Assembly: GCA_046260035.1 (NCBI GenBank)
Contig: JBJYXQ010000500.1
Coordinates: forward strand, 1-27,427
Length of the DNA: 27,427 bases
Source of the DNA: Anaerolineae bacterium
GTDB lineage: Bacteria; Chloroflexota; Anaerolineae; B4-G1; SLSP01
Reading direction: 5' to 3'
A model generated the notes under the pieces. The model had not been told where the DNA came from and ran no database searches. It saw nothing but the letters and a program-made list of their open reading frames with translations. This document shows, piece by piece, positions 292-18,912 of the stretch (position 1 is its first letter; every line of letters begins with the position of its first letter). A program made the position numbers and the translations under genes.

Positions 292-321
292 TTGACAAAT
301 CCTTTCTACCTGTGCTATACT
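292..321 (+). promoter_or_regulatory. sigma70-type promoter with extended -10
   Basis: TTGACA (292-297), 18-bp spacer, TG at 313-314, TATACT (316-321), upstream of the 514 gene. Confidence 0.8.
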
Positions 322-327
322 AGGCTC

Positions 328-341
328 TGGAAGCGCTTCCA
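328..341. promoter_or_regulatory. LacI/GalR-family operator
   Basis: Perfect 14-bp palindrome TGGAAGCGCTTCCA with central CG, 6 bp downstream of the -10 box. It fits the LacI-family/cre-like TGNAANCGNTTNCA pattern. Confidence 0.75.
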
Positions 342-513: not shown

Positions 514-3063
514 ATGACATTTTCTTACCTTGAGTATGAACTGCACGACGGCTACATCCACAACTGGCTGGTTGCCGGTTCGCAGGAGATCGCCATTCCC
601 GATCCTGATCACTACACAGGCGGGGAACCGGAGCGTAAGCTCCAAATCGCACAACATTATTACACCCCGGAAAACTTCGTTCAGCAGACCCCGGTTGACC
701 GGGAATCTTTCGCAGTTGATGACACCACATTGACCTGGCACTATGTCCGTTGCCTTGACGACCACTTTGTTGATAAATCCACCTTCCACCATACCTGGCA
801 CTATTTGCGTACCTGGGCGTACACTCAGCTTCACGTGTGGGAAGAGCAGGAAGCCACCTTCATCATTACGACGAACGGGCCGGCAGATGTATGGGTCAAT
901 GGGGAGCACGTTCACCGTCACGAGCACTTTCACCATCAACAGCCTGCGAGCGCATCTTTCATCGCGAGGCTGCGCGAGACGGACGATGAGGGCGTAGGCA
1001 ATGAGATCCTGGTCCGCTTCGAGGAAGTCGCCGCGCGCGAATGCCCTTACGTGATGGCGTTGCGTGTGGCTGACATCGATCTTGAAGATGTCGAGGTAAA
1101 AGTGCCTTCAGCGACAACGCGTACCATTCGTCATATCATGTTGGAGCAGGTCTTTGAGCAGGCGTGCATTGAAGAAGTTGCGAACTACCGTGGTAAGGTG
1201 GTGAACCTCCACTGGCCAGACGATCTTGAGACAAACTTCAACTACGATTACAGCATTCAAGACCCGAGAAACCGTATGTATGTCGGTGGCGAGACTGAGG
1301 CCAAGCCCGGTGAGGTGAACGATATCGGTCACGGTTTCCGTATTTGGCAAGGCCCTTTCCGGGCGGTGCTCCGCGCGGTTTCGCAGGAACATGCTTTCTG
1401 GAATGTCCGCTATCAATGGGAGATGCCTTTCTATATCCTGGACACTGCGTACTCAGAGACCCCTTATGGTACCGTAGAGGAACGCAGCCTTGAGGCGCTG
1501 AACTATGCGGTAACCCAGAAAGACAATCTCTATGCCGAGATTGCCAAGTTCGAGCTTGGAAAATGGGAAGACGTTGACCAGGACGTTATCCTGAAAGCCA
1601 TTGCCTCTATCAACGCGCGCGGTGATTGCAGCGACTTCGATCTCGTGGGCTTGCTTGGCGTGATGTACCGCTATATGGACCAGGATGAATTCCCCGCCGA
1701 TCTGAAGGCGCTGCTCAAGGAGTGCGTCCTCAACTTCAAGTACTGGCACGATGAACCTGGTGCCGACGCGATGTGCTACACGACAGAGAACCACAGTATC
1801 CTCTTCCACACCTGTGAAGTCCTGGCCGGGCAACTCTATCCCGATGAGGTTTTTACCAATACTGGGCAGACCGGTCAGTGGCATCGTGAGAAGGGCGAGC
1901 GCCTAGCGTTGGCGTGGCTCAAGACACGCGGCGCGACCGGTTTTTGGGAGTGGGATTCCAACTGCTATTTCGACGAAGACCTTCTGGCGCTATCACACCT
2001 TGTCAGTCTATCCGAGACCGAGCAGATCATAGAACTTGCGGCTGTCGTCATCGATAAGATGCTCTTCACGATGGCGGTCAACAGCTATAAGGGTGTCTTT
2101 GGTTCGACGCACGGGCGGACCTATAGCCCGATGATCAAAAGTGGGCAACTCGAACCCACGTCGGGCATCTGCCGCTTGATGTGGGGACAGGGCGTTTACA
2201 ATCAGCATTTGCGCGGTCTGGTGGCGATGGCGTGCTCGGGATACGATTTCCCGTTGATGATTGCTGGCATCGCGACAGACCAACGAGAAGAGATGTGGAA
2301 TCGCGAGCGCCACGTGATCAGTGATGCCGGAGATGAGATCAACAAGGTCACGTATAAAACCCCCGATTATATGCTGGCTTCAGTCCAGGATTATCGCCCT
2401 GGCGAGAAAGGTTACCAGCAGCATATCTGGCAGGCGACTTTTGGTCCTGATGCCGTCGTCTTCGTTAATCATCCACCAGTCATCAGTGAGGATGGCGCCC
2501 ACCGCCCCAATTTCTGGGCAGGAAACTACGTGCTGCCGCGCGTGGCACAGTGGAAGGACGCGTTGATCGCGTTATACAACCTGCCCGAGGACGATTGGCT
2601 GGGTTTCACCCACGCACATTTCCCGATCTATATGTTTGACGCCTACGAGGTCCACGATAACTGGGCCTTTGCGCGCAAAGCGGATGGCTATCTCGCGCTT
2701 TATGCATCGACTGGCCTGTCTTTGGTTAAGCGCGGCCCGGCGGCCTATCGTGAGTTACGCGCTTATGGCCGCGAGACGGTGTGGGTCTGCCAGATGGGAC
2801 GCGCGGCGGTGGACGGCAGTTTTGAGGAATTTCAGCAGAAAGTGCTGGAATCTGCTATGGATGTGCAAGGGCTTACGGTCAATTACACCACGTTGCGCGG
2901 CGAGACATTGGCTTTTGAGTGGGAGGACGCATTCCTCCGTGATGGTGTGGAACAACCCCTGACCGGTTTCAAGCACTATGAGAACCCTTATTGCACGGTC
3001 GAGCTGCCCGCTTCCCAGATGGATATTCGTTTTGGCGATTATGTGATGCGGCTTGTATTTTAA
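514..3063 (+). CDS. 849-aa uncharacterised cytoplasmic protein, possibly carbohydrate-active
   Basis: Long ORF with SD GAGGAGG upstream and no signal peptide. Distinctive motifs include TENHSILFHTCEVLAGQLYPD, GFWEWDSNCYF, GVFGSTHGRTY, YQQHIWQATF and RPNFWAGN. It lies between a LacI operator and an ABC importer. I cannot name the family. Confidence 0.6.
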   Translation: MTFSYLEYELHDGYIHNWLVAGSQEIAIPDPDHYTGGEPERKLQIAQHYYTPENFVQQTPVDRESFAVDDTTLTWHYVRCLDDHFVDKSTFHHTWHYLRTWAYTQLHVWEEQEATFIITTNGPADVWVNGEHVHRHEHFHHQQPASASFIARLRETDDEGVGNEILVRFEEVAARECPYVMALRVADIDLEDVEVKVPSATTRTIRHIMLEQVFEQACIEEVANYRGKVVNLHWPDDLETNFNYDYSIQDPRNRMYVGGETEAKPGEVNDIGHGFRIWQGPFRAVLRAVSQEHAFWNVRYQWEMPFYILDTAYSETPYGTVEERSLEALNYAVTQKDNLYAEIAKFELGKWEDVDQDVILKAIASINARGDCSDFDLVGLLGVMYRYMDQDEFPADLKALLKECVLNFKYWHDEPGADAMCYTTENHSILFHTCEVLAGQLYPDEVFTNTGQTGQWHREKGERLALAWLKTRGATGFWEWDSNCYFDEDLLALSHLVSLSETEQIIELAAVVIDKMLFTMAVNSYKGVFGSTHGRTYSPMIKSGQLEPTSGICRLMWGQGVYNQHLRGLVAMACSGYDFPLMIAGIATDQREEMWNRERHVISDAGDEINKVTYKTPDYMLASVQDYRPGEKGYQQHIWQATFGPDAVVFVNHPPVISEDGAHRPNFWAGNYVLPRVAQWKDALIALYNLPEDDWLGFTHAHFPIYMFDAYEVHDNWAFARKADGYLALYASTGLSLVKRGPAAYRELRAYGRETVWVCQMGRAAVDGSFEEFQQKVLESAMDVQGLTVNYTTLRGETLAFEWEDAFLRDGVEQPLTGFKHYENPYCTVELPASQMDIRFGDYVMRLVF

Positions 3064-3493: not shown

Positions 3494-5335
3494 ATGAAGA
3501 AGATTACACGTCGGCAGTTCTTGCAGGTTTCGGCTATAGCCGGAGCAAGCGCTGTCCTGGCTGCCTGCGGCACGCCTACCCCGGAACCTACAGCGGCGCC
3601 AACCGTTGAAAAGACCGAGGAACCCGTAGTTGAACAACCAACCGCAGTACCTGTAGAGGCACAAACGTGGCCTCGCGAGGATGTGGCGCGTGAGCGCACG
3701 TTGATTTACGCATTCGGTGCGGTAGAGCTGGCAGGTGTCGGTATCGGCAATATGTATGCCAATAACTGGCACCAGATGGCCGGTTCGGCGATGCTCGAGT
3801 TCCCCTTCTACTACTGCGCGCTCAACAACAAGACCTACCCCTGGATTGCCGAGAGCTGGGAGTACAACGATGACTACACCGAGATGACGTTGTATCTGCG
3901 CAAGGGTGTCAAGTGGGCAGATGGTGAAGACCTCAACGCCTCTGACATTGTCTTCACGTACAGCAGCTTGAAGGCCGCCGCTCCCGATTACGAGAACTCC
4001 AGCTTTGTGGCTCAGTACGTGGACTCGGTCGAGGCCGTCGACGACTACACCGTCAAGTTCACGTTGATGGAACCGAACCCCCGCTGGCACTTCACCGGCT
4101 GCACCGGCCGCTTTGACCGCGGCATCATCCTTGTGCCGGAGCATATCTTCTCGACGGTCGAGGGTGACTGGCGCGAGTTCGCCTTCTTCGATCTGGACAA
4201 GAAGTGGCCCGTTTACTCAGGGCCCTATGCGGTCAGCCGTTTCGACGTCCAGGTCAAGCACATGGATCTGCGCTACGAGTGGTGGGCTGCTGACTTAGGC
4301 CTGGCCGATATGCCGAGTGTTGAGCGCATCGTGCAGTTTGGTTGGACCAATGACGAGGTCGGTGGTCAGATGTTGATCAACGACGAGGTGGATGTGACGC
4401 TCGACTTGCGCCCCGCCACCATCGAGGCGATCCTGGCCCAGGCTTCAGATCATATCACGACCCATACCTTCGGCGAGAAGCCCTACGGTTACATGGACTG
4501 GTGGCCCACCTCGCTGTTCTTCAACACCCTCGAAGAGCCGTACGACAACAAGGACGTCCGCTGGGCGTTCGCTTACGCCATCGATCACCAGCAGGTGATG
4601 GATGTGGGCTATGGCGGCGCGGGTGTCAAGACCAATCTCCCGTTCCCGGGGTACCCCGGACTGACAAAGTATCGGGACAACTCCACAGCGGAAGTGAGGG
4701 AGATGGCCGACGCTGTCTTTACCCGCGATGTCGCCAAGGTCGAGGAGCGGATGAAGGCCGCTGGCTTTGAGAAGAATGACGATGGCTTCTTCGCCAAGGA
4801 CGGCGAGGTCTTCCAGCCCGAAATCCTGACCGTCGATATCTATGCCGATATCGGCCCCGTGATCGTGGAGCAGTTGCGACAGGCCGGTTTCGACGCGCAG
4901 CAGATCAACCCACCCGACGCCTGGACGATCATGGGAGACGGGAATTCGAAGACGTTCTTCCGTGGCCATGGTGGCAGTGTGAAGGATCCCTGGATCACGC
5001 TGGACATGTACACTGAGAAGAACTCCGTGCCCACCGGAACGAATGTCGTCAATGAAAGCTGGACGCGATGGTGGGACCCGGATTACGAGGTCGCCGTCAA
5101 TGAGATGGCCCGCACGTCGCCCGACGACGAAGCCAAGATGCAGGAGCTGTTCGACAAGTGTATGCAGATCTGGTACACGAACCTGCCGGAGGTTCCGATC
5201 TCCGAGTGGTTCCACCGGTTGGCGATGAACACGACCTATTGGACCGGCTGGCCCAATAAGGACGACGCCTATAACACGGCGCCGTGGCACTATTGCTTCG
5301 TGATTACCCTCAGCCGCTTGAACCCGGCGCAGTAG
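3494..5335 (+). CDS. ABC transporter solute-binding protein, family 5 (OppA/DppA-like), Tat lipoprotein, probably oligosaccharide-binding
   Basis: SD AAGGAGG; twin-arginine TRRQFL; lipobox LAAC followed by a P/T/E-rich linker; family-5 motifs ([37 protein letters not shown]). Confidence 0.9.
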
Positions 5336-5348
5336 CCTTTTGTAAGCG

Positions 5349-5388
5349 CGCGAGGGGGCCAGGGCACCGGCCCCCTCGCGTCTTCCCT
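5349..5388 (+). terminator. GC-rich stem-loop after the SBP gene (partial terminator or mRNA stabiliser)
   Basis: CGCGAGGGGGCC (5349-5360) pairs perfectly with GGCCCCCTCGCG (5369-5380) around an 8-nt loop. Only a weak pyrimidine tail (TCTTCCCT) follows. Confidence 0.65.
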
Positions 5389-5514
5389 AGGACTGCGGAG
5401 ATCTGGAGAGGCCAGGGAACTATCTACTGATCAGTAGATGAGAGTAGGTGCAAGGTCGCTGTCTTCTCCAGGTCTCCGAGGTTGGCCGATCCTGCTGACC
5501 ATTTCTTAAGGAAC

Positions 5515-5612
5515 CCTTGCGAAGGTTGGCGCATACATTTCACTGCAAGGTGACCTGCTTTAGCGGGAGATCGTCTCTCCAGCAGCGCCATCTGTAACCT
5601 TCGCAAGGTTAC
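5515..5612. repeat. Inverted pair of short palindromic REP-like elements
   Basis: CCTTGCGAAGGTT (5515-5527) is the exact reverse complement of AACCTTCGCAAGG (5596-5608). The second copy is itself a hairpin, GTAACCTT-CGC-AAGGTTAC (5594-5612). Confidence 0.5.
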
Positions 5613-5645
5613 TCATAGATCTTGTTATCGTATTGGAGGTACCTG

Positions 5646-6659
5646 ATGCGCATACCACTCAGTTACGTGCTCAAAAGAATCGGTTTTCTTATAGCGGTGC
5701 TCTTTACGGCGGCTACAATCAATTTTATCATTCCGAAGCTGGCGCCGCGTGATCCTGTTCAAGAACTGATCAACCAGAAGATTGCGAGCGGTGGGCTTAC
5801 GTCCGAGGGAGCCGCGGAGTTTCGGGATTCTCTCAGGACGCTTTACGGTCTTGACAAGCCGTTATGGCAGCAGTATGTGACCTACATCTGGAATACCATG
5901 CGATTCGATCTGGGCTACTCCATCACTAACTATCCCGTAAGGGTCGATTTCATCATCGGACAGACGGTATTCTGGACCTTGGGCTTTGTAGGCACCTCGA
6001 CGATTCTCGCGTTTATAATCGGCACGGTCGTTGGCGCTATGGTGGGCTGGTCGAAGACGTCGAAGTGGTTTTCGTGGCTCATGCCACCACTGGCATCGTT
6101 TTCGGCTGTCCCGGCTTTCATCATCGCGCTGGTGCTCATTTATTTCCTGGCTTTCAAGCTCAAGGCGTTCCCGCTGCGCGGCGGCTACTCCCCGACGATA
6201 GAAAAGGACTGGGCGAGTACAGATTTCTTGCTCGACGTGGCCCATCACGCGCTTTTACCGGGCTTGTCCATGCTGCTGGTCTCCGTCGGCGGCTGGTCAC
6301 TGGGGATGCGCGCGATGATGGTGACCGTGGAGGGCCAGGACTTCATCACCTTTGCCGAGGCGAAAGGGTTGAAGGGCAGTCGTATCTTCTTCCGCTACGC
6401 GCTGCGCAACACGTTGCTGCCCCAGGTCACGGCGCTGGCGATGCAACTGGGCCTTATCGTGTCCGGCGCCACGCTGGTGGAGACTATGTTCGCCTATCCT
6501 GGCATTGGCAACCGCCTGGGGGCCGCCATCGCCGCCCTCGATTATCCGGTGATCTACGGCATCGTGTTCTTTATGGTGGTCGGGATTGCCGTGGCTACCC
6601 TTCTCGTGGATCTGCTTTATCCATTCCTTGATCCGCGCATCTCGTACTCAGGAGGCTAA
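5646..6659 (+). CDS. ABC transporter permease, OppB/DppB type (337 aa)
   Basis: ATG at 5646 follows SD GGAGGT (the track's 5622 start lacks an SD). Motifs: YGLDKPLWQQY, FDLGYS, EAA-like FAEAKGL, RYALRN, ETMFAYPGIG; multiple TM helices. Confidence 0.9.
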   Translation: MRIPLSYVLKRIGFLIAVLFTAATINFIIPKLAPRDPVQELINQKIASGGLTSEGAAEFRDSLRTLYGLDKPLWQQYVTYIWNTMRFDLGYSITNYPVRVDFIIGQTVFWTLGFVGTSTILAFIIGTVVGAMVGWSKTSKWFSWLMPPLASFSAVPAFIIALVLIYFLAFKLKAFPLRGGYSPTIEKDWASTDFLLDVAHHALLPGLSMLLVSVGGWSLGMRAMMVTVEGQDFITFAEAKGLKGSRIFFRYALRNTLLPQVTALAMQLGLIVSGATLVETMFAYPGIGNRLGAAIAALDYPVIYGIVFFMVVGIAVATLLVDLLYPFLDPRISYSGG

Positions 6660-6662
6660 ACG

Positions 6663-7535
6663 ATGCAGAGAGGTCAAGGTTTAAGGGGTTTTCTCAGTTA
6701 CATTCGCCGTAACCCGGCCTTCGGCGGCGGGCTGGCGTTGCTCCTGGTGCTGTTGCTCTTTTCGACGGTGGCCGGATTCTTCGTCCCCAAAGAGGGGGCC
6801 TACCCGTTGGCCGTGATGCCCAAGCAAGCGCCCTCTGCGGAGTATCCCTTTGGCACGGATTCCGTGGGGCGCGACCTGCTTCCCGCACTGATCTACGGCA
6901 CGCGGATGACGCTCTCGATCGGTATGATCGCCGGTTGCATCGGTCTGGGCATCGGAACTGTGTTGGGTTTTATGACGGGCTACTTCGGTGGTCTCTTCGA
7001 CACGATCATCAAATTCTTCGTGGACGTGCTGATGACGATCCCGTCCTTCCTCCTGTTGATTACCATTGCTGCATCGCTGCCCCATCCTGAGGATATGGGT
7101 GTCATCCAAATGTCCTTGGTCCTCTCGATCGTTGCCTGGGTGCAACCAACGCGGGCGATCCGGGCGCAGGTGCTGAGCATGCGCGAGCGCGCCTTTGTGA
7201 TGATGGCCAAGCTGTCAGGCATGAGCGGGATGGAGATCATTATCAAAGAACTGATGCCCAACTTGATGCCGTATCTCGCCATCAGCCTGGCGGGTGCGGT
7301 CAATGGCGGCGTCCTCGGCTCGTTGGGCCTGCAGACATTGGGCATTGGCAACCTGCGGGAACCGTCGTTGGGGATGACGATCTACTGGTTGCGGTACTAT
7401 AATGCCTTCTTGCAGGGCTACTGGTGGTGGATCATCGAACCAGTGATCGTGATCGCTGCGATCTTTATCGCGTTTTTGCTTCTCTCCATCGGGTTGGATG
7501 AGTTTGCGAACCCCAGAACTCGGAGGACCGTATGA
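6663..7535 (+). CDS. ABC transporter permease, OppC/DppC type
   Basis: PSAEYPFGTDSVGRDL, GTRMTLSIG, RAQVLSMRERAFVMMAKLSG, ELMPNL, GYWWWIIEP. Confidence 0.92.
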   Translation: MQRGQGLRGFLSYIRRNPAFGGGLALLLVLLLFSTVAGFFVPKEGAYPLAVMPKQAPSAEYPFGTDSVGRDLLPALIYGTRMTLSIGMIAGCIGLGIGTVLGFMTGYFGGLFDTIIKFFVDVLMTIPSFLLLITIAASLPHPEDMGVIQMSLVLSIVAWVQPTRAIRAQVLSMRERAFVMMAKLSGMSGMEIIIKELMPNLMPYLAISLAGAVNGGVLGSLGLQTLGIGNLREPSLGMTIYWLRYYNAFLQGYWWWIIEPVIVIAAIFIAFLLLSIGLDEFANPRTRRTV

Positions 7536-8494
7536 GCGAGCCAGTGTTGCACGTTAAAAATCTGAAAGTCTACTACTACGTTGAGGCTGGGGCTGTTAAG
7601 GCGGTCGATGATGTTAGTTTCGACTTGGACTTTGGCGTGAAGATGGGACTCGTAGGAGAGTCCGGTTCCGGTAAGTCGACGATGGCGCTGGCCTTGATGC
7701 GTATGATCAAACCCCCCGGCAAGATTGAGGAAGGGCAGATGATTCTGGATGGCACCGACCTTGTCGGGCTCTCTGAAGAGAGGATGCGCCAAACCCGACT
7801 GCGCAAGTTAGCGATGATCCCGCAGGGCGCGATGAATGCGCTTAATCCGGTGATGCGCATCGACAAGCAGTTGGTGGATGGCATGCTCGATCACGGTATT
7901 GTCTTGTCCAAAGAGGAACGCGAGGAACGCGTGGCCCAACTGCTGGAGATGGTGGACCTGGCCCCCAAGGTTGGCAAGATGTACCCGCACGAGTTAAGCG
8001 GGGGGATGCAACAGCGCGTGACGGTGGCGCAGTCTATCTCGATGGAGCCCGATGTCATTATCGCCGACGAACCAACCAGCGCGTTGGATGTGGTGATTCA
8101 ACGGCAGGTGATGGAGACGATTAACCGTCTTCAGCAGAAACTCGGACTCTCCATCATTCTCATTGGCCATGATATGGGGCTGATGGCGCAAAGTGTGGAC
8201 CGGCTTGCCGTGATGTACGCCGGCAGAATGATGGAGATTGGAGAGATACGCGCGATGTTCCGTAATCCTCTCCACCCCTACACGCAACTCTTGATCGAGA
8301 GCTTACCCGTCTTGGATAACAAAGGGGTATTCAGTGGGATACCTGGAATCACACCCTCGTTGGTGAATCCACCTGCAGGTTGTGTCTTCCATACCCGCTG
8401 CCCTAAGGCTTGGGACCTCTGTCGGGAAAAGACTCCGGAGTTTGTTGAAGTTCAGTCAGGACGGTGGGTTGCCTGCCACCTTCACACAGCATAG
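7532..8494 (+). CDS. ABC transporter ATP-binding protein, OppD/DppD type
   Basis: ATGA overlap with the previous stop; Walker A GESGSGKS; LSGGMQQR; Walker B IIADEPT; C-terminal GCVFHTRCP...VACH. Confidence 0.95.
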   Translation: MSEPVLHVKNLKVYYYVEAGAVKAVDDVSFDLDFGVKMGLVGESGSGKSTMALALMRMIKPPGKIEEGQMILDGTDLVGLSEERMRQTRLRKLAMIPQGAMNALNPVMRIDKQLVDGMLDHGIVLSKEEREERVAQLLEMVDLAPKVGKMYPHELSGGMQQRVTVAQSISMEPDVIIADEPTSALDVVIQRQVMETINRLQQKLGLSIILIGHDMGLMAQSVDRLAVMYAGRMMEIGEIRAMFRNPLHPYTQLLIESLPVLDNKGVFSGIPGITPSLVNPPAGCVFHTRCPKAWDLCREKTPEFVEVQSGRWVACHLHTA

Positions 8495-8511
8495 GTTTGG
8501 GGAATAAGAAG

Positions 8512-9525
8512 ATGAGCACACCATTACTTGAGTTAAGAAACGTAACCAAGATCTTTGGAAGCAAGACCGAATATACGGTGGCTTTGGATGATATGACACT
8601 CGCTTTTGATGAGAACCTCCCCAAAATCATCGCCGTCGTTGGTGAGAGTGGTAGCGGTAAAACAACCACGGGTATGCTATTGCTAGGTTTCTATGGACCC
8701 ACAATGGGGCAGGCTCTATTCCGTGGCAAGCCATTGAGCGAGCTTAAGGGCCCGGATCTTTTCCAGTTCCGGCGGGAGGTTCAGGCCGTTTTCCAGGATC
8801 CGTTCGCTGTGTACAATCCGTTCTACAAAGTCGATAACCTCTTGAGTATCCCTATCAAAAACTTCAAGCTGGCTGATTCGAAAGCTGGAGCCCGCGATTT
8901 GATGGAGGATGCCCTCGAGCGGGTTGGTCTGCGTCCGGAGGAGACGCTGGGCCGCTATCCCCACCAACTGAGTGGTGGGCAGCGACAACGGATCGCGGTG
9001 GCTCGCGCTTTGCTCCTGAAGCCCAAGTTCTTGGTCACCGACGAACCTGTTTCGATGGTCGATGCTTCGTTGCGCTCGACGATTCTCAAGAGTCTGCGAG
9101 CTATGAACCAGGAATTCGGTATTCCGATCTTGTACATCACCCACGACCTGACGACGGCATACCATATCAGCGACTACATCATCATTCTATATCGCGGTTC
9201 GGTGATGGAGGCTGGTGATGTGGATTCCATCATTCGCGATCCCCATCATCCCTATACGAAACTTCTGGTTTCGTCAATTCCCTGGCCTAATCCCGAACTC
9301 TCGTGGGGCGGTACCGAGGAGATGATCCAGAAGAGCCAGGTGGCCTTTAAGGCAATCACGGGCTGCAAGTTCGCGCCACGCTGTCCCTATAGGATGGATA
9401 TATGTGACACGAAGGCGCCGGAACTCTTCAGGCCGCAGAATAACCGGGTGGTCGCATGTTATCTGAACCGCGACAACGAAGTTTTGTCTCGCGCGGATCT
9501 AAGTAAAGTTTTCGCTGAGGCCTAG
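8512..9525 (+). CDS. ABC transporter ATP-binding protein, OppF/DppF type (337 aa)
   Basis: Likely start ATG 8512 (MSTPLLELRNVTKIF); Walker A GESGSGKT; LSGGQRQR; TDEPVSMVD; GCKFAPRCP...VACY. Confidence 0.93.
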   Translation: MSTPLLELRNVTKIFGSKTEYTVALDDMTLAFDENLPKIIAVVGESGSGKTTTGMLLLGFYGPTMGQALFRGKPLSELKGPDLFQFRREVQAVFQDPFAVYNPFYKVDNLLSIPIKNFKLADSKAGARDLMEDALERVGLRPEETLGRYPHQLSGGQRQRIAVARALLLKPKFLVTDEPVSMVDASLRSTILKSLRAMNQEFGIPILYITHDLTTAYHISDYIIILYRGSVMEAGDVDSIIRDPHHPYTKLLVSSIPWPNPELSWGGTEEMIQKSQVAFKAITGCKFAPRCPYRMDICDTKAPELFRPQNNRVVACYLNRDNEVLSRADLSKVFAEA

Positions 9526-9669
9526 ACGGCAAACTGACAACGGGCAATTTACCGTCGGCAAGCTGCTGTGCGGCAGCTTGGCTTGCGGTCGGAGTTGAAC
9601 GCGGATTTGAGGACACTGCAGGGTGCACTGCGCCTTGCAGTGTCTTGTCTGTAAGGAAGGAGTTTCGAG

Positions 9670-11283
9670 CTGATCACCAAAAGTGTTGGGCGCAATGATC
9701 CGTGCCCCTGTGGGAGCGGCAAGAAGTACAAACAGTGTTGTGGACGGCCCAAGCCGCCAGCCGACGTGCTTTACGTCCATCCGCTCAAACAGGATGTCGA
9801 TTTCTACGTCCAGCAGCAGGATGCGCGTGATGTGCAGATGGGCCGTCCTTACGGGCTGATTCCGTTGGGCGTGCCTGCGTTGGTGAACGTTCTGCGCGGT
9901 GCTGGCATTGAGGTGCGAGGTATCAATTATCCGCTGGAACGCGAGCTAAGCCGTAGTTTTGACCTTCGTCGCTGGTTGCGGGCGCAGACACGGGCGCGTG
10001 TGATCCTCATCGACTTGCACTGGTACGAGCACAGCTACGGCGCAATTCGCATGGCCGGCGTCTGCAAGGAGGTTCTGCCAGATGCGTGGATTGTTTTAGG
10101 GGGACTGACGGCTTCCGCATTTGCTCGCGAGATTATGGAACGCTTCGATGCGGTTGATTTTGTGATCCGCGGCGATGCCGAGCAACCGTTGCTTGCATTG
10201 GTGCAGCAGTGTCTCGGCAAGACTGAAGCGGCGTCCCCGGAGTTTGCCAACATCCCCAACCTGACCTACCGCCGTGATGGCGAGGTGATCGAGAATGCCA
10301 TCGGCTATTGTGCTGCTACAGAGGATTTGGATCGCCTTGACTACGTCGACTTGAGTTTCCTGGAGCATTACACCGAGTATTTCGTCCATGAATACCTGGT
10401 CACCGATTTGGCTAAGGCGCGTGCCGCGCTCAAGACCGACCCTTTCCTGGGCCGTTGGATTGCTACGGCGCGCGGATGCAAGTACGAGTGTTCCTACTGT
10501 GGGGGATGCAAGAGCGCGCACAAGACCCTGGCAACGCGGGACGGCATTGTGCCCCGCTCGCCTGAAACGGTGGTCGACGAACTGGAACGTTTGGCGGCAG
10601 TTGGTGTGAAGCAGGCGTCTCTTTCCTACGATATCGCCGAGTTGGGGGACGAATATTGGCGTACTTTCTTCTCGCTTATGCGTCGACGGAAGATCAAGAT
10701 TGGATTGTACAACGAATGTTTCCAGCTCCCGACGCCGGCTTTCGTCAAACGCTTCGCCCAGGTGGCGGAGCGGGAACACTCGTGTCTGGCGTTCAGTCCA
10801 CTCTCAGGCAATGAGCGGGTGCGCCGGCTCAACGGGAAGCGCTTCACCAACGGTGAACTGTTCAACATCCTGGACGCCCTCAATCTCCACGATATCTTCG
10901 CCCTCGTTTACTTTTCCCTGAACTTGCCCGGTGAGAATGATGAGACCCTCAAGGATTCCATCGCTCTCGCCGAAGAGATGTGTCAACTTTACCCGCCCTC
11001 GCGAATACGGATTTTGAACTCTTGTCATACCCTGGATCCTCTATCGCCAATGGCGGTTTATCCTGAAAAGTATGCGATTGATGTGACAATGCGGAATTTC
11101 GATGACTGGTATACTTATTGTCGTGACACCCAGTTAGGCGGACCGGAGGCGCGCACCGAGGCGCATCGTGGTTTCGTGCTAAGCGATCAAGCGAGTCGCT
11201 CTCTGGAAGCGATGGCGGATGCCTGGGACGCAGCCCGGACGGCTCACGAGAGTTGTTGGTGGCCCATCCCGCCGAGTTGGTGA
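9670..11283 (+). CDS. Cobalamin-binding radical SAM protein 1 with N-terminal SEC-C motif (about 537 aa if started at CTG 9670)
   Basis: B12-domain motifs ([31 protein letters not shown]) and [11 protein letters not shown] (CxxxCxxC). Upstream of the track's GTG 9766 the same frame reads ...[24 protein letters not shown]... SD AAGGAG (9657-9662) lies 7 nt before CTG 9670. The LHW..H..G motif recalls the TIGR04190 (Ta0216-like) family, from memory. Confidence 0.85.
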
Positions 11284-11385
11284 AACAGACTTTAGGGCCT
11301 AACCACGCAAATTCTTGCACAATGAGCAAGAAAACGGGCGTCGAAGGCCTGCTTAGTTCCAGTTTATCCGGATTAGGAGGATAGT

Positions 11386-12921
11386 GTGGACGTAGCCCCT
11401 GCTGCTTTGTATATTCACCCGGCCAAACAGGCCGTGGACCTTTTTGACACGCCTGCTCGCTCGAAACTTGGACGACCGTACGGTTTGATTCCGATGGGCG
11501 TACCGGCACTGATGAACTTGCTCTGCGATAATGGGATTCCGGTCAAAGGTGTCAACTTCCCGTTGGAGAAGAAGCTGGACAGTAGTTTCAACCTGCGCCA
11601 GTGGCTGTATGATCATCGCGAAGCCCGGATGGTCCTCATCGACCTGCACTGGTACGAGCACAGTTACGGCGCGATCAATGTTGCGCAAATTGTGAAGCAA
11701 GTTTTGCCGGATGCCTGGGTTATCCTCGGGGGCTTGACGTCGTCTGCCTTCGCCGATGAGATCATCCGAGATATCCCCGTGGTCGATTTTGTAATCCGAG
11801 GTGATGCCGAGCGCCCGCTGTTGGCTTTGGCCCAGGCGCTGATGAGCGTGGAGCGGGGTGTTCTGCCCGATCTCTCTGACATCCCTAACTTGACGTACCG
11901 TCTCCAGGGGGAGGTAGTAGAGAATCCGCGAACATATTGCGCGCGGCCTGAGGATTTCGCCGACTTCAATTTTATCGACCTGGACTGGATGGAACATCAA
12001 GACGAATACTTTGTCCACGAGTATCTGGTCATCGATATGGAGCTGGCGCACCAGGCCCGTCAAGGGGCGGACATTAGTAAGTACCGGGGCCGCTGGATCA
12101 CGACGGCGCGTGGCTGCGACTTCGAGTGTTCCTATTGTGGGGGCGCGCGGAGTGCGCACAAGGCGATTGCCGGGCGGGAAGGCATCGTGCCTGTCCCGAT
12201 AGAAACGATCGTGAACGAGATCAAGCAACTGATCGAGCACCAGGCGATCCAGGTGTGTTTTTCCTATGACCTTGCTGCGATGGGTGACCGCTATTGGCGC
12301 TCGCTCTTCCGCGCGATACGCAAGGAAGGCATCAAGATCGGCCTCTACAACGAGTTCTTCCAACTTCCCCCTTCGGGTTTTATGAAGGACTTCGTCCGCA
12401 CGGCGGATATGGAACACTCCAGCGTGGCTCTGAATCCCTACTCCGGTTCGGAGCGGGTGCGCCGTCTGAATGGGAAACGCTACAACGATGCGCAGTTGCT
12501 CAACGCGCTCGATGAAGTCAACCTCTATAACGTCCCCATCATCGTCTACTTCTCGCTGAACCTGCCGGGCGAGGATGAGGACGTCATACAACAGACCGTC
12601 AAGCTGGCACAGACTGTCTACGATATGTATCCACATTCCAAGCTGAAGATCCTGAACTCATGCCATACGGTCGAACCGTTGTCGCCGATGACACAGCGGC
12701 CTGAGCCCTACGGCGTTGAAATAAAGTGGCACACGTTCAGAGACTGGTACGAGTATTGCCGGAACACACAGTTGCAGTTGCCGGGTGCTCGTACGGGCGA
12801 GTGGCGGGGGTTCGACCTTCTGCCGCCAGCGAATCGCTCTGTCGAAGCGATGGCCGACGCATGGGATGCAGCGGCTAGCGGGCGCGAGGATGTTTGGTGG
12901 CCGATTCCGCCTAGTTGGTAA
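11386..12921 (+). CDS. Cobalamin-binding radical SAM protein 2, paralog of protein 1
   Basis: GTG start after SD AGGAGG; [41 protein letters not shown]; ends WWPIPPSW like protein 1. Confidence 0.88.
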   Translation: MDVAPAALYIHPAKQAVDLFDTPARSKLGRPYGLIPMGVPALMNLLCDNGIPVKGVNFPLEKKLDSSFNLRQWLYDHREARMVLIDLHWYEHSYGAINVAQIVKQVLPDAWVILGGLTSSAFADEIIRDIPVVDFVIRGDAERPLLALAQALMSVERGVLPDLSDIPNLTYRLQGEVVENPRTYCARPEDFADFNFIDLDWMEHQDEYFVHEYLVIDMELAHQARQGADISKYRGRWITTARGCDFECSYCGGARSAHKAIAGREGIVPVPIETIVNEIKQLIEHQAIQVCFSYDLAAMGDRYWRSLFRAIRKEGIKIGLYNEFFQLPPSGFMKDFVRTADMEHSSVALNPYSGSERVRRLNGKRYNDAQLLNALDEVNLYNVPIIVYFSLNLPGEDEDVIQQTVKLAQTVYDMYPHSKLKILNSCHTVEPLSPMTQRPEPYGVEIKWHTFRDWYEYCRNTQLQLPGARTGEWRGFDLLPPANRSVEAMADAWDAAASGREDVWWPIPPSW

Positions 12922-12931
12922 AGGGGCGCTG

Positions 12932-13942
12932 ATGAGAATACCGTCTCGGTATCTCGCCAGACGATTGTTCAACCTGGTTGCCGTGGTGTGGTTCGCCGCT
13001 ACGGTCAATTTTCTGCTTCCGCGCATCACGGCCCACGATCCTGTGCTTGAGTATCTGCTGGAGGTCTCGACGCTGACTGGTGAGCGCGGGGACCAGGCGC
13101 AAAGCCTGCTGACGTTCTATAGGAATTGGGCAGGGCTGAACCAACCGCTGTGGCGGCAGTATTTTACCTATCTGGGTAACATGGTGCGCCTTGATTTTGG
13201 ACGTTCGTTCCGCTATTACTGGCCAGTGACGGACATCGTGATGCGCTCGTTGCCCTATACGGTTGTTTTACTGAGCGTCGCCACGATTCTGGCGTTCGTC
13301 ATTGGAACGGGGTTGGGCGCCTGGGCCGGGTGGAAGCGTGATGCCAGGTTCTTCAAAGCCCTCGTCCCAGCTTTTATGGTGCTTTCATCCATTCCTCCGT
13401 TCATTGTCGCGTTGATCATTCTCTACATTTTCTCGTTCCGCCTCGACCTCTTCCCTTTCCGCGGCTCTTATAGCGTGACGATCAATGTTGACTGGACGAA
13501 TACCGACTTCCTGCTGGATGTGGCTAATCATGCGGTGCTGCCGGTTTTGACGATGATCCTGGTAACAGGCGGAACGTGGGCGATGTGGATGCGTGGTATG
13601 ATCGTCACAGTACTCGGTGAAGATTTCATGATGTATGCTGAAGCCAGGGGGCTCAAATCTTTCCGGCGATTTTATCATTATGCTATGCGTAACGTCATGC
13701 TTCCTCAGGTGACCCAATTGGCCATATCATTGGGAACGTTGGTGTCCGGCTACGCGCTGGTGGAGACGATGTTTGCCTATCCGGGGGTGGGGCATCTCCT
13801 CTCTGAAGCTATCCTTGCCAGCGATTACGCGATGATTCAAGCCATTATCTTCTTCCTCATCCTGGCTATTGCCCTGGCGACGTTTATCCTGGACATGACT
13901 TACCCCTTGCTCGATCCGCGGATCCGTTACGAGACAGTGTGA
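12932..13942 (+). CDS. Second OppB/DppB-type ABC permease (336 aa)
   Basis: ATG 12932 gives MRIPSRYLARR, which mirrors MRIPLSYVLKR of the first permease. GLNQPLWRQY, FMMYAEARGL, YAMRN, ETMFAYPGVG, YPLLDPRI. The track's 12785 start overlaps the rSAM gene and is unlikely. Confidence 0.88.
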   Translation: MRIPSRYLARRLFNLVAVVWFAATVNFLLPRITAHDPVLEYLLEVSTLTGERGDQAQSLLTFYRNWAGLNQPLWRQYFTYLGNMVRLDFGRSFRYYWPVTDIVMRSLPYTVVLLSVATILAFVIGTGLGAWAGWKRDARFFKALVPAFMVLSSIPPFIVALIILYIFSFRLDLFPFRGSYSVTINVDWTNTDFLLDVANHAVLPVLTMILVTGGTWAMWMRGMIVTVLGEDFMMYAEARGLKSFRRFYHYAMRNVMLPQVTQLAISLGTLVSGYALVETMFAYPGVGHLLSEAILASDYAMIQAIIFFLILAIALATFILDMTYPLLDPRIRYETV

Positions 13943-13953
13943 TTGACGCGTCG

Positions 13954-13982
13954 TTGGGCAACTTGACAATATTGCCTATAAT
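13954..13982 (+). promoter_or_regulatory. Candidate sigma70-type promoter for the 14076 gene
   Basis: TTGGGC (13954-13959), 17-bp spacer, perfect TATAAT (13977-13982). Confidence 0.5.
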
Positions 13983-14075: not shown

Positions 14076-17000
14076 ATGGAAAACCCACTACTCCATAATG
14101 CAATCGAAAGCGCCAAGCTGGGATTCTACGATGATGCGCGCGGGCTGTTGCTCCAGGTCATTCGCGAGGATCCGAATAACGTGCTGGCTTGGTTGTGGCT
14201 GGCGCAGACACTCGACGACCCAAAGCGGCAGGCAGATTGCCTGAGTCGGGCGCTGCACATTGAGCCGGACAATCCAGACGCGCTAGCAGGTGTGGAAGCA
14301 TTGCGCACCGGGATGCCCTTGCCTGAGCCGCGAGGGGGTGTCGTTGAAGAACCTGAGCCCGAGTTCGTTGAGCCGGACGAAATGTTCAACTGGGGAGTGT
14401 TGTCCGCCGAGGAGCCGGAGGTTGAACCTGAAGTGGAGGCTGCGCCTGAGGCGGAACCTGACCTTTTTGCACCCGCCGATATTTCTGATTGGGGCGAATT
14501 GTACACTGAGGAGCCGGAGTCGGCACCTGAAACCGAGCCTGAGTCTTATGCCGACGATGATCTGTTTGGTTGGGGCGAGTTGTTCGCCGAAGAACCAGAA
14601 CCGGAAGCGCCGGTTGTTGAGGAGCCTGCACCGGTCGAAACCCCGTCACCGTCAGTATCGTTCATCGGCTTAGAGGAGGAAGAACCCCCATCTGAACCAG
14701 AACCGGCCGTGCCGGAGAGCCCGCCTGAGCCGGAAGAAAGCTTCCTCCAAAGAGCACGCCGGCTGCGCACACAGGGTTTTACGCTGCCGGCTGAACCGGT
14801 GGAGCCTGCTGCCCCACCTGCGTCCGTGCCGCCTTTCATCGAAACTCCAGAAGAGATCGGCCCAGCACCCCAAGAACCTGAACCTGAGGCCAAGGCCGTG
14901 GAAGAAGTGTCCGCTGAACCCGTGTCTGCACCGTTACCGCCGCGCAAGTTCCGTATCTTCGACCGGCGGGTGCTGTTCAGCATTCTGGGGTTGATCCAAC
15001 TCCCAATCCTAGCCGGGTTGCTCGTCTGGTATTTCTTCCTGCGCGGTCCCGCAGTATCCGAATCCATCGACGAGTACTTACCCCTGGCGGCATCGTTGCC
15101 ACGGCCTGCATTGGGAAGATGCCGCGCTTTGGATCTGGAAGATTTCGTGTCGGTGGAGACACTGGGCGGTGAATTGACCACGGACACGGTTTTCACCGGT
15201 ACGCAGGTGGCGATCACCGAAACGCTGGTGGTACCCGTGGGCGTGCGGCTGCTTCTCTATCCTGGCGCGACGTTGGCTTTTACTTCCGAGGCATCGCTCG
15301 AGGTTTATGGGACGTTGTACGCTTGTGGCAACGCGGATGCCCCGGTCATATTCTCGGCGTTTGAAAAAACACCAGGCGCTTGGGAAGGCATACGGCTCTA
15401 CAATCGCGAAAAAGCGACAGTATTGAGTCACGCGGTTGTCGAGTATGCCGGCGAACGCGCGCTCTACATTGCCGATAGTGTCCCCGAGCTGGCTGATCTC
15501 ACCATCGCGCACAGCGCACTCTTCCCCATCAGTCTTGATGGTAGCGTGGTTCCCGATCTATCCGACAACATCAACATCGCAGACAATCCTGTCAATGGAA
15601 TTGAGATGCGCCCCGGCACGTTGCAGGTTCCGAATGCTGTGTGGCCGTATATTAAGAGTAAGGATTCGCCCACGGTATACGTTCTTTCTGGACTGCTGAG
15701 GGTAGATGAGGGTGCGACGTTGGATATCCAATCCGGCGTCATCGTGAAATTCTGGCATGCGCCAAAGGGGCAGTTGCCGGGGATCTGGGTGCATGGGTTG
15801 TTGCAGGCCGAGGGTGCACTGTTTACCTCGATGTACGATAGCGTCGAGGATGCCGGCGGGGCGACCTATATGGAAGCCATCGATCCTCAACCCGGCGATT
15901 GGGGCAGCTTAACGTTCTTCGAAAGCAGCGAGAAATCGTATCTGCGAGATGTGGTGATCCGCTACGCAGGACGGGCGCGCGGGGCCGTGACGATGCAGGC
16001 TAGCTCGCCGGAGCTGACGCGGGTGACGATCACTGACTCTGCTGGATATCCGCTGAGTGCCGATGCCCGGTCTTTCCCCACGCTCGAGGAGATGACGCTG
16101 GAGGATAATGCCGCCGGCAATGCTCTGGAAGTCTTCGGTGGCTTGAGCATTACCGGGCAAGATACGTATGTATGGGAGCTTCTGGGTGGAAGTACACAGG
16201 TCGTGCGCGTCGTCCGTGATGCGGTGACCGTGGGACCGGACGCGGTGTTGAAAGTTCAACCGGGTGTGGTGGTCAAATTTACCGAGCAGGGCCGGATGGT
16301 GGTCCAGGGCGCTCTGTCCGCTATCGCTACCAGCGATACCGCCGAACAGATTGTCTTCACCTCGCTACATGACGACGAATATGGCGGGGACACCGATGGC
16401 CCCACCGTTCCTCAGGATGACCGCGTTTGGGAAGGCATCATCCTGGAGGGCGCGGATGAGACCACCGAACTGCAAAATGTCCTTGTGCGCTATGCTCCTA
16501 TCACGCTGTTGGATGCCTCGCCCAAGTTGTTCAGCAACAAGATCGCGCTCGCGCCGGGCGCCGGGCTGCGGATGACGCCTGGATCATCGCCGGATATGCG
16601 GGGCGCGAGCTTCGAGGACAACGGGTTGCATGGCATCGCTATCCTCACCGGTACGCTAATCGCTGACCAGAAGTGGACGCGACTCGGTGGGACAGGGGAC
16701 GATCAGATTGTGCGCGTCCTGGAGGGTGAGGTCACAGTCGGGCCGGGTGCCGTCCTGGAGATCGAACCTGACGTGGTCATCAAAGCCAATCCCGCGGGTA
16801 AGCTGATGGTGCTTGGGCATCTGAGCGCGAAGGGGCGTGCCGATCAACTGGTTGTATTCACTTCCTTGAATGACGACGTGCGCGGCGGGGATACCAATCG
16901 CCGGCCTCTCAACGCAGGCGCTGGCGACTGGCCCGGCATCGAGATTGGGCCTGAGGGGAATGCACACCTGGCCTACGTCGGCATTTACTATGCGGAGATC

Positions 17001-17162
17001 GGCCTGAACGTGCAAGGCACAACGCTGCCGACCATCGATGAAGGGCGCGTTCACATCGCGTATGGGAAGCAGCCATTGGCGTGTACCGAGCGCATTCAGA
17101 TCCCGCCCGCATTCTTCTTCGAGTACAACGAAATCGATGTCACACGCTGTCCATCACCGTGA
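14076..17162 (+). CDS. 1028-aa single-pass membrane protein: TPR-like N-terminus, acidic Pro/Glu linker, TM helix, repeated right-handed beta-helix region
   Basis: SD GAGGAGG; TPR-like ARGLLLQVIREDPNNVLAWLWLAQ...ALHIEPDN; long E/P-rich tract; hydrophobic VLFSILGLIQLPILAGLLVWYFFL after KFRIFDRR; recurring FTS..DD..GGDT...W.GI units with (V/L)x(V/I)xPGV(V/I)(V/I)K strands. Confidence 0.7.
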   Translation: MENPLLHNAIESAKLGFYDDARGLLLQVIREDPNNVLAWLWLAQTLDDPKRQADCLSRALHIEPDNPDALAGVEALRTGMPLPEPRGGVVEEPEPEFVEPDEMFNWGVLSAEEPEVEPEVEAAPEAEPDLFAPADISDWGELYTEEPESAPETEPESYADDDLFGWGELFAEEPEPEAPVVEEPAPVETPSPSVSFIGLEEEEPPSEPEPAVPESPPEPEESFLQRARRLRTQGFTLPAEPVEPAAPPASVPPFIETPEEIGPAPQEPEPEAKAVEEVSAEPVSAPLPPRKFRIFDRRVLFSILGLIQLPILAGLLVWYFFLRGPAVSESIDEYLPLAASLPRPALGRCRALDLEDFVSVETLGGELTTDTVFTGTQVAITETLVVPVGVRLLLYPGATLAFTSEASLEVYGTLYACGNADAPVIFSAFEKTPGAWEGIRLYNREKATVLSHAVVEYAGERALYIADSVPELADLTIAHSALFPISLDGSVVPDLSDNINIADNPVNGIEMRPGTLQVPNAVWPYIKSKDSPTVYVLSGLLRVDEGATLDIQSGVIVKFWHAPKGQLPGIWVHGLLQAEGALFTSMYDSVEDAGGATYMEAIDPQPGDWGSLTFFESSEKSYLRDVVIRYAGRARGAVTMQASSPELTRVTITDSAGYPLSADARSFPTLEEMTLEDNAAGNALEVFGGLSITGQDTYVWELLGGSTQVVRVVRDAVTVGPDAVLKVQPGVVVKFTEQGRMVVQGALSAIATSDTAEQIVFTSLHDDEYGGDTDGPTVPQDDRVWEGIILEGADETTELQNVLVRYAPITLLDASPKLFSNKIALAPGAGLRMTPGSSPDMRGASFEDNGLHGIAILTGTLIADQKWTRLGGTGDDQIVRVLEGEVTVGPGAVLEIEPDVVIKANPAGKLMVLGHLSAKGRADQLVVFTSLNDDVRGGDTNRRPLNAGAGDWPGIEIGPEGNAHLAYVGIYYAEIGLNVQGTTLPTIDEGRVHIAYGKQPLACTERIQIPPAFFFEYNEIDVTRCPSP

Positions 17163-17174: not shown

Positions 17175-18329
17175 ATGACGATAACACAACTACGCATTGG
17201 CATGATTGGTGTGACCGGACGAGGTGGGCTTTGGCGACACTGGCACCAGCCGGACGGGCGTTCGGTTGTTGTAGCCGGGGCGGACGTTAACCCGGCGTAT
17301 TTGGAGACCTTCAAGGCTGCGCACGGTGGTGATCCTTTTGTAACAGAGGATTACCGTGAATTGCTCGAACGCCCCGATGTCGATGCCGTGGCCGTCACGT
17401 CGCCGGATTTTTGCCACGAGACGCACGCGGTCGCTGCGTTGGAAGCCGGGAAACACGTCTTCTGCGAGAAGCCGCTGGCGATTACTATCGAAGGTTGCGA
17501 CCGCATCCTGCAGGCGTGGCAACGTTCCGGAACACGGCTTATGGTCGGCTTCAACATGCGTTATATGGCGATGTTCCGGGTGATGAAGGAGATTGTGGAT
17601 GCGGGCACCATCGGCGAGATCAAGGCCGTGTGGGTGCGGCACTTCGTTGGCTTTGGCAGCGACTTCTACTTCCACGATTGGCATGCCACACGCCAGAATG
17701 CGAACTCACTGCTACTGCAAAAAGGTTCACATGACCTCGACATGATTCACTGGATCACGGGACGTTATACCACGCGTACAGCGGCGTTCGGTAGTCTGGA
17801 TTTCTTCGGCGGCGACAAGCCCAACGATCTGACGTGCCCGACGTGCGCCGAGCGCGAAACCTGCACCGAAGCGCTGAACGGGCGACGCGTGCAGTGCGCG
17901 TTCCGCCAGGAAGTCGACGTAGAGGACAACCAGGTGATGATCATGGAGCTGGAAGGCGGCATCAAGGCATCTTACTTGCAATGCCACTTCACGCCGGATT
18001 ATCATCGCAACTACACCTTCATCGGCACGGAAGGACGCCTGGAGAACTCTGAGCCGGAGATGAAGGTGTGGGTGAAGACACGACGCTCGAACTCCTGGCG
18101 CGATTTAGCGGATCGTACCTATGACGTTAAACCAGCAGCGGGTGGGCACGGCGGTGCCGATCCGGTCATCTGCAAGGATTTTGTGGATATGTGCCTGGAC
18201 GGCAAAGAACCCGTGGCGTCGCCACTGGCGGGCCGGATGAGCGTTGCGGCGGGCGTTTGCGCGGCGCATTCGTTGCGCCATGGCGGCATCCCTGTGGATG
18301 TACCGCCAGCACCGGAAGGGTTTCGGTAG
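17175..18329 (+). CDS. Gfo/Idh/MocA-family NAD(P)-dependent oxidoreductase
   Basis: RIGMIGVTGRG, DVDAVAVTSPD, GKHVFCEKPLA, VGFNMRY, LLLQKGSHDLD, GGHGGAD. Confidence 0.92.
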   Translation: MTITQLRIGMIGVTGRGGLWRHWHQPDGRSVVVAGADVNPAYLETFKAAHGGDPFVTEDYRELLERPDVDAVAVTSPDFCHETHAVAALEAGKHVFCEKPLAITIEGCDRILQAWQRSGTRLMVGFNMRYMAMFRVMKEIVDAGTIGEIKAVWVRHFVGFGSDFYFHDWHATRQNANSLLLQKGSHDLDMIHWITGRYTTRTAAFGSLDFFGGDKPNDLTCPTCAERETCTEALNGRRVQCAFRQEVDVEDNQVMIMELEGGIKASYLQCHFTPDYHRNYTFIGTEGRLENSEPEMKVWVKTRRSNSWRDLADRTYDVKPAAGGHGGADPVICKDFVDMCLDGKEPVASPLAGRMSVAAGVCAAHSLRHGGIPVDVPPAPEGFR

Positions 18330-18360: not shown

Positions 18361-18456
18361 CGCAAATCAACAAATTTGCACTAACGCCAAAAGCTCTATG
18401 GTGATTGGCGAAATTAGCAACAAGAATATTGATATTTTAGTGTAGAGGAGGATATG

Positions 18457-18872: not shown

Positions 18873-18912
18873 AGACCTGATAGGCTATCTTTTTAGCCTG
18901 TCAGGTCTTTTT
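18873..18912 (+). terminator. Intrinsic terminator after the cytochrome c gene
   Basis: AGACCTGATAGGCTA (18873-18887) pairs with TAGCCTGTCAGGTCT (18894-18908), one G-U, followed by a T run. Confidence 0.8.

Follow-up and report, generated by a model that had tools for sequence, protein, structure and literature searches.

We analysed a 27,427-nt stretch of DNA, i.e. one whole contig of an 86%-complete metagenome-assembled genome (MAG) of an Anaerolineae bacterium, hereafter called the window, and focused on two adjacent genes, rSAM1 and rSAM2, encoding radical S-adenosylmethionine (SAM) enzymes with a B12-binding type domain. They stand beside the genes of an Opp/Dpp-type importer and of an 849-aa protein, here named U849. 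We consider it somewhat probable that this locus is a LacI-controlled cassette for the uptake and catabolism of an acidic oligosaccharide, in which the class-B radical SAM enzymes would carry out an O2-independent radical step on the cargo or its product. New in this work are the linkage counts, the fold of U849, a second family of radical SAM enzymes, the duplication history of the pair, a hairpin at a gene junction and a metatranscriptome profile. Genes were assigned from the list of open reading frames (ORFs) and from Pfam and NCBIfam scans, and the features of the cassette are as follows:

292..321, + strand: promoter-like site TTGACA-18-TATACT, 5' of U849 (11/12 matches; consensus match only)
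328..341, no strand: perfect 14-bp palindrome TGGAAGCGCTTCCA, putative operator of LacI-family type (from sequence), just 3' of the -10 hexamer
514..3063, + strand: U849, 849 aa, predicted cytoplasmic, without Pfam or NCBIfam family
3494..5335, + strand: substrate-binding protein (SBP), SBP_bac_5 family-5 lipoprotein (Pfam/NCBIfam)
5622..6659, + strand: permease B, BPD_transp_1, OppB/NikB-like (Pfam/NCBIfam)
6663..7535, + strand: permease C, BPD_transp_1 (Pfam)
7532..8494, + strand: ATPase D, ABC_tran and oligo_HPY (Pfam)
8464..9525, + strand: ATPase F, ABC_tran and oligo_HPY (Pfam)
9610..9647, + strand: 17-bp hairpin GACACTGCARGGYGC-N4-GCRCCYTGCAGTGTC, followed by CTTGTCT, conserved at the F-rSAM1 junction
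9670..11283, + strand: rSAM1, 537 aa from CTG 9670, B12-binding and Radical_SAM (Pfam/NCBIfam)
11386..12921, + strand: rSAM2, 511 aa, B12-binding and Radical_SAM (Pfam/NCBIfam)
12932..13942, + strand: B', extra OppB-like permease (Pfam/NCBIfam)

The gene order SBP, B, C, D, F, rSAM1, rSAM2, B', all on the + strand, had been proposed in an earlier account based on the letters of the stretch (the sequence-only reading) and was recovered here, as was its placing of B' 10 nt past the rSAM2 stop codon (12919-12921), at ATG 12932. That account also described the radical SAM pair as enclosed by transporter genes. This is true of the window and is not the conserved state: a B' orthologue follows the radical SAM genes in 14 of the 36 related loci with enough downstream flank, i.e. 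it is optional. B' shares 48% identity with B.

To this window we compared 42 species-level genome loci and several metagenome loci with rSAM1 homologues, onto which the window proteins were mapped (L and G numbers below are our labels for loci and genomes). U849, SBP and F were present in all 26 related loci having at least 53% identity and at least 9.3 kb of upstream flank, and F in all those (36/36) with at least 1.2 kb upstream. Two loci (L031 and L033) have an inverted transporter, yet U849, transporter and radical SAM genes remain together. The association of radical SAM genes, importer and U849 is far beyond chance. In a maximum-likelihood tree, the linked radical SAM proteins formed one clade (support 99/98) in which the lineages with one copy diverge first and the rS1 and rS2 clades, mirroring each other in at least 24 species, come next; judging by the sequences, the pair arose by one duplication. 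As both copies were retained in parallel, their roles would be non-redundant, either as successive steps or within a heteromer. Clustering at 50% reduced the linked clade to one representative, with the next relatives at 41-47% identity; Bacillota relatives (about 32% identity) are found among very large genes whose size suggests non-ribosomal peptide synthetase or polyketide synthase clusters. In one locus (L058:10001-13368), both tandem radical SAM proteins carry a SEC-C motif and both fall on the rS2 side of the tree, suggesting a separate duplication. Single-copy radical SAM genes are followed by a small 130-aa gene; its candidacy as a substrate peptide was rejected on the grounds of its hydrophobic, probably membrane-spanning segments and its poor conservation.

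rSAM1 and rSAM2 share 55% identity. The former was first called from GTG 9766; its true start is CTG 9670, in a frame open from 9655 and with the Shine-Dalgarno sequence AAGGAG 7 nt upstream. The 32 additional N-terminal residues constitute a SEC-C zinc motif (CxC…CC) that matches SecA and YchJ peptides, and most close rSAM1 homologues are 537-538 aa long with PF02810. rSAM2 is devoid of this motif, and both proteins end in WWPIPPSW. Their cluster motifs, CKYECSYC in rSAM1 and CDFECSYC in rSAM2, are intact and conform to CX3CX2C, the three cysteines of which are the only ones invariant across 48 family members. Both exceed the Pfam cut-off for Radical_SAM (45.7 and 50.8 bits, respectively, vs 29.5), and rSAM1 that for the B12-binding domain PF02310 (37.2 vs 32.1 bits). 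The AlphaFold2 model of rSAM1 (predicted local distance difference test score, pLDDT, 92) has TsrM, CysS, MgmA, TokK and AprD4 as nearest solved folds. Its whole-chain superposition on TsrM, TokK and CysS gives rSAM1 the N-terminal Rossmann domain of class B, and rSAM2 acquires it through the 55% identity in this region. Cobalamin use by the two enzymes is a prediction from models; the window's genome has a single cobalamin riboswitch, and a search for CobS in this MAG (86% complete) gave none. The best curated model for both is TIGR04190, at 201.9 bits (rSAM1) and 211.4 bits (rSAM2) vs a cut-off of 500, and by these scores both proteins lie outside this family and outside any subfamily of assigned function. 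According to the literature, archaeal glycerol dialkyl glycerol tetraether (GDGT) ring synthases also are B12-type radical SAM enzymes. A third B12-type radical SAM protein, with 29% identity to rSAM1, is encoded elsewhere in the window's genome (G000 contig C403:7185-8225, L006).

The importer is a complete Opp/Dpp-type set, comprising a family-5 SBP, two BPD_transp_1 permeases and two ABC_tran ATPases with an oligo_HPY C-terminal region. Its genes score far below the cut-offs of the NCBIfam equivalog models for Opp, Dpp, Nik and Gsi. The SBP bears a twin-arginine signal and a lipobox (…RRQFL…LAAC), and its nearest solved relatives are the mannoside binder of Thermotoga and the chitooligosaccharide binder of Vibrio (E about 1e-24 to 1e-22), with a solved cellobiose binder also among the nearest; OppA, NikA and DppA (the last at 1e-12) are much more distant.

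Searches with the U849 sequence returned neither a Pfam or NCBIfam family nor any PDB entry. Its AlphaFold2 model (pLDDT 85) consists of an N-terminal jelly roll of PA14/GH2 type, an Ig-like domain and, over residues ~320-849, an (alpha/alpha)-toroid followed by a beta-sandwich, as in polysaccharide lyases (PL) of families PL8, PL12, PL15 and PL17. Alignment with VIA-align gave Z scores of 9-10.4 over 385-420 residues with chondroitin AC lyase, heparinase III and hyaluronate, xanthan and alginate lyases, and heparinase and alginate-lyase clusters of the AlphaFold database matched the model with E of 1e-17 to 1e-27. The lyase fold was seen with VIA-align and the AlphaFold database libraries only; Foldseek searches with the whole model were dominated by the N-terminal GH2/PA14-like jelly roll (TM about 0.12). 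Across the family, several Cys and His and, more broadly, many His, Tyr, Asn and Arg residues are invariant; the catalytic His/Tyr/Asn(Arg) set of polysaccharide lyases was not recognised among them. From the modelled fold, U849 may act as a lyase, and it is a candidate for a new family of carbohydrate-active enzymes. Few genomes carry a homologue (7 of the 401 Chloroflexota genomes sampled), and in every case it adjoins Opp-type genes. The window's genome contains further U849 paralogues (62% and 34% identity) on the short contig C585 (L053:1-6050), with a Gfo/Idh/MocA gene between them.

A LacI operator ahead of the 849-aa gene was part of the sequence-only reading. The palindrome, which agrees with the LacI-family consensus, supports it, and its 12-mer core recurs 5' of U849 in four other species (L009, L011, L035 and L057), with a LacI gene inside the homologous loci L001 and L054. 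The 12-mer has a single exact copy in the window; a second match with three mismatches, inside rSAM1, is at chance level and was discarded.

A second family of radical SAM proteins, here rS656, was found in comparable operons. In G207, the operon comprises B, C and D, a 656-aa radical SAM protein with a B12 domain, a GH4 glycoside hydrolase, an oligogalacturonate-lyase-like (PL22-like) gene, a cupin gene and U849. The rS656 protein is again beside U849 in G338 and lies 20 kb from it in G094. Comparison with the window's radical SAM proteins by BLASTP gave only a short local match at the cluster-binding motif, and the best NCBIfam models of rS656 are PhpK and a methylase of ribosomally synthesised and post-translationally modified peptides (RiPPs), at about 110 bits, with TIGR04190 at 41 bits; by sequence, rS656 is unrelated to the window clade beyond the superfamily. 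Its genes, encoding proteins of about 630-656 aa, directly follow Opp-type ATPase genes:

L051:7503-9473, - strand: rS656-family gene
L060:3325-5229: rS656-family gene
L061:7716-9599: rS656-family gene
L064-L143: further rS656-family genes

Counts were made on 80 metagenome loci. In 44 of 51 loci, the rS656 gene is immediately preceded by an Opp-type gene in the same orientation, and 10 of the 20 loci with both flanks have a U849-like gene no further than 6 kb away; a subgroup of the rS656 loci holds GH4, PL22-like and cupin genes. The finding of two radical SAM families at the same operon position argues that they serve the pathway of the imported sugar, which probably contains uronate. In two sugar loci, relatives of the radical SAM genes also have URO-D-family genes beside them (L056:14044-16302 and L060:9384-10643), and the radical SAM gene of L056 is followed by one for a xylose-isomerase-like TIM barrel. 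Corrinoid methyltransferases are among the members of the URO-D family, and the URO-D neighbours are a lead toward methyl-transfer chemistry, no more.

Taken with the relatedness of the SBP to oligosaccharide binders, the lyase-like fold of U849 and the LacI-type operator, the GH4, PL22-like and cupin genes of the sister loci favour a sugar cargo, most likely an acidic oligosaccharide and not a peptide. The sequence-only reading had left the choice between an imported sugar and a peptide, and these four lines of evidence speak for the former.

The F-rSAM1 gap measures 145 nt in the window and 80-350 nt in all related loci but one. In an alignment of 15 species, the stem of the hairpin that it contains is invariant or compensated (two pairs are compensatory), while its flanks are unalignable. 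Its conserved part lies at 9612-9644 of the window. The window's genome has one copy, 22 of the other loci compared carry it at this junction, and it is conserved in more than 20 species. With Rfam gathering thresholds, a scan of the entire window detected neither a riboswitch nor any other RNA family, the hairpin included. By its sequence pattern, it probably serves as an attenuator, as a stability element or as a site for protein binding, and it may set the level of the radical SAM message below that of the transporter message.

Parts of the stretch were found in seven public metatranscriptomes (rhizosphere, wetland and salt marsh), and the contigs of four of these, all from rhizosphere, were mapped to positions 1-19500 of the window. 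Contig depth peaked at the SBP gene (117-167 in one of the four, X1); it was about 30-42 over U849, about 45 from B to F, about 8 over rSAM1, 1-3 over rSAM2 and below 1 over B'. This uneven profile speaks for RNA over DNA carry-over. One RNA-library contig spans 9129-9720, i.e. the F stop codon, the hairpin and CTG 9670. The sequence-only reading had envisaged an undescribed pathway tied to the importer. In line with it, the homologues co-occur with OppBCDF genes and the 849-aa family in every informative locus (26/26, and 36/36 for F), neither protein joins a subfamily of known function (202 and 211 bits against the 500 of TIGR04190), and this contig crosses the junction between F and rSAM1.

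On the preferred reading, i.e. uptake and catabolism of an acidic oligosaccharide by Anaerolineae, the oligosaccharide would contain uronate and its source glycans would probably be of plant or microbial origin. The Tat-exported SBP lipoprotein and the OppBCDF-type importer would bring it into the cell, where the cytoplasmic U849 would cleave or trim it. rSAM1 and rSAM2 would then apply the SAM-derived 5'-deoxyadenosyl radical, possibly with cobalamin, to the imported sugar or its product without O2; the reaction might be a dehydration or C-O cleavage, a demethylation or methyl transfer, or a rearrangement. B' would be an optional alternative permease subunit, translationally coupled to rSAM2.

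Several observations weigh against this reading. The fold of U849, itself a model, is by itself no proof of lyase activity. Two loci, L054 and L055, hold a U849 homologue and Opp-type genes without a radical SAM gene in the stretch examined, which implies that the radical step is dispensable for some U849 pathways. With regard to cobalamin, rSAM2 scores 26.9 bits for PF02310, under the cut-off of 32.1, and AprD4, a structural neighbour of rSAM1, works without cobalamin. The nearest characterised relatives of the two proteins are biosynthetic methylases, not catabolic enzymes. As for expression, DNA carry-over in RNA libraries is possible and contig depth is a poor measure of expression, a contig over two genes is no proof of a single transcript, and the gap, the hairpin and the about five-fold drop in depth after F allow a partly separate expression of the radical SAM genes.

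A more specific proposal, which we regard as possible and put forward tentatively, is that U849-bearing Opp-type operons independently recruited B12-domain radical SAM enzymes from two unrelated families, each for an O2-independent step, dependent on cobalamin or a radical, on an imported acidic sugar. Candidate steps under such a recruitment are the removal of a methyl ether or ester and the rearrangement of a methylated or branched uronate. No haem-copper oxidase was found in the window's genome, while carriers of rS656 do have one; that the radical SAM enzyme replaces an O2-dependent step in strict anaerobes is only weakly suggested.

The radical SAM enzymes might instead be maturases that modify a protein of the locus, i.e. 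U849, the Tat-exported SBP or a permease, which we judge unlikely. Precedents are the anaerobic sulfatase-maturing enzymes and, for methyl-coenzyme M reductase (MCR) as target, the B12-type radical SAM methylases Mmp10 and MgmA. A protein target would be in keeping with the strict co-occurrence of the radical SAM genes with U849, the presence of the protein methylase MgmA among the closest solved folds, the invariant Cys and His residues of U849 and the Tat route of the SBP, a route that exports folded proteins; the SEC-C motif of rSAM1 points the same way, as in SecA this motif mediates protein and ribosome contacts. However, U849 homologues occur without radical SAM genes in the stretches examined of L054 and L055, and among the rS656 loci with both flanks, every second one lacks a U849-like gene in the surrounding 6 kb, whereas nearly all have the importer. 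Two unrelated radical SAM families with U849-type loci fit recruitment to a pathway better than a co-evolving pair of enzyme and maturase, and a target motif was not identified.

It is improbable, in our view, that the radical SAM genes form a separate unit merely placed beside the importer, with its own expression and a role foreign to the cargo, e.g. the modification of lipids or cofactors as for other TIGR04190-like proteins. Such a unit would account for the hairpin and the 80-350 nt gap ahead of the radical SAM genes and for the drop in contig depth after F, and the sister clade (42-48% identity) is indeed unlinked to U849, most of its members lying beside housekeeping or isoprenoid genes with no sugar genes near. 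Against this, the linkage holds in all informative loci, among proteins diverged to 54% identity and through the inversion of the transporter; B' is coupled to rSAM2 by a 10-nt gap, the RNA-library contig reads through the hairpin into rSAM1, and the rS656 family shows the same placement.

Improbable as well is a cargo consisting of a peptide or a metal or opine complex, with radical SAM enzymes modifying an imported or locus-encoded peptide in RiPP fashion: the permeases do score best against nickel and oligopeptide Opp models and both radical SAM proteins match RiPP C-methyltransferase models, but the former scores are under the cut-offs and the latter weak, the SBP is nearer to solved oligosaccharide binders than to DppA, OppA or NikA, the control element and neighbouring genes are of the sugar-metabolism kind, SPASM and RRE domains were not found in the Pfam and NCBIfam scans, and the 130-aa gene after single-copy radical SAM genes encodes a hydrophobic, poorly conserved protein. 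The sequence-only reading had seen no obvious adjacent RiPP precursor, and we likewise found no plausible small precursor ORF in the two long gaps between genes that were scanned, 3064-3493 and 5336-5621, where conservation of small ORFs was only loosely checked.

The remaining features around the cassette are the following:

1-180: tail of an upstream gene, matching DUF362 genes of related loci
14076..17162, + strand: protein of 1028 aa (weak TPR and beta-helix matches), encoded by a variable accessory gene that only some related loci possess
17175..18329, + strand: Gfo/Idh/MocA oxidoreductase, recurring downstream of the radical SAM genes in related loci
18454..18786, + strand: small lipoprotein with one CxxCH haem motif (CVACH), recurring downstream of the cassette in many related loci
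18873..18908, + strand: strongest terminator-like hairpin of the region, with a 15-bp stem and a T run, 3' of the small lipoprotein gene

In several related loci, among them the earliest-branching one (L002), DUF362 genes stand 5' of U849. For the 1028-aa protein, the PDB sequence search gave one marginal match, to a designed TPR protein (E 0.017). The terminator-like hairpin is, from its sequence, a possible end of the transcription unit. Further downstream (20235-25076) lie genes for a histidine kinase of 1204 aa with five GAF domains and then for a hybrid response regulator/kinase, with no linkage to the cassette in the other loci examined.

A language-model atlas search returned unnamed clusters alone, and a literature search (on TIGR04190, cobalamin radical SAM enzymes with an ABC transporter and lyase, SEC-C with radical SAM, anaerobic methyl-glucuronate demethylation, Anaerolineae radical SAM enzymes and radical SAM enzymes with oligogalacturonate lyase) found no paper on the system. 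Digesters, sediments and rhizospheres are rich in Anaerolineae, and the carbohydrate metabolism of this class is poorly understood. To our knowledge, the known radical SAM enzymes of the B12 type are almost all biosynthetic, acting in the production of antibiotics, cofactors and lipids and in protein methylation. If the recruitment of two families proposed above is true, class-B radical SAM enzymes would for the first time be given a catabolic role directed at carbohydrates. The conserved cassette, as a putative substrate-inducible operon for sugar uptake, would join radical chemistry to anaerobic glycan degradation.

Among known systems, the oligosaccharide-type Opp importers under LacI control (for mannosides and cellobiose in Thermotoga, for chitooligosaccharides in Vibrio) have the same composition as the window's importer, i.e. 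an SBP of family 5, two permeases and two ATPases with oligo_HPY tails. The genes that come next there encode glycoside hydrolases or phosphorylases, unlike the radical SAM pair of the window, and we know of none described with radical SAM genes or an additional B-type permease. The cytoplasmic oligo-uronide lyases (PL15 Atu3025, PL17, PL8 and PL12) share with U849 the fold of toroid and beta-sandwich, the predicted cytoplasmic location and the position beside an importer; U849 differs from them in having no detectable sequence similarity and in its additional PA14-like N-terminal domain.

Regarding the radical SAM proteins, TIGR04190 (B12_SAM_Ta0216) has the same domain order, a Rossmann-type domain followed by the radical SAM core, and matches over about 420 residues (E 1e-59 to 1e-62). 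NCBIfam assigns no function to this family, and the window clade is set apart by a SEC-C motif, a WWPIPPSW tail and an operon context of its own. TsrM, TokK, CysS and MgmA, the solved structures nearest in fold to the model of rSAM1 (TM 0.53-0.61; E 1e-14 to 1e-18 with Foldseek), have in common with it the CX3CX2C motif and an N-terminal cobalamin-type domain, at an identity of 13-17%. The first three are biosynthetic (for thiostrepton, carbapenem and cystobactamid, respectively) and MgmA modifies MCR, whereas the window pair sits in a putative catabolic import operon. Finally, AprD4, a radical SAM 1,2-diol dehydratase acting on an aminoglycoside sugar, resembles the rSAM1 model (TM about 0.55, identity 12-13%) and has a B12-like N-terminal domain; although it belongs to a biosynthetic pathway, that of apramycin, it is a precedent for radical chemistry at a sugar hydroxyl.

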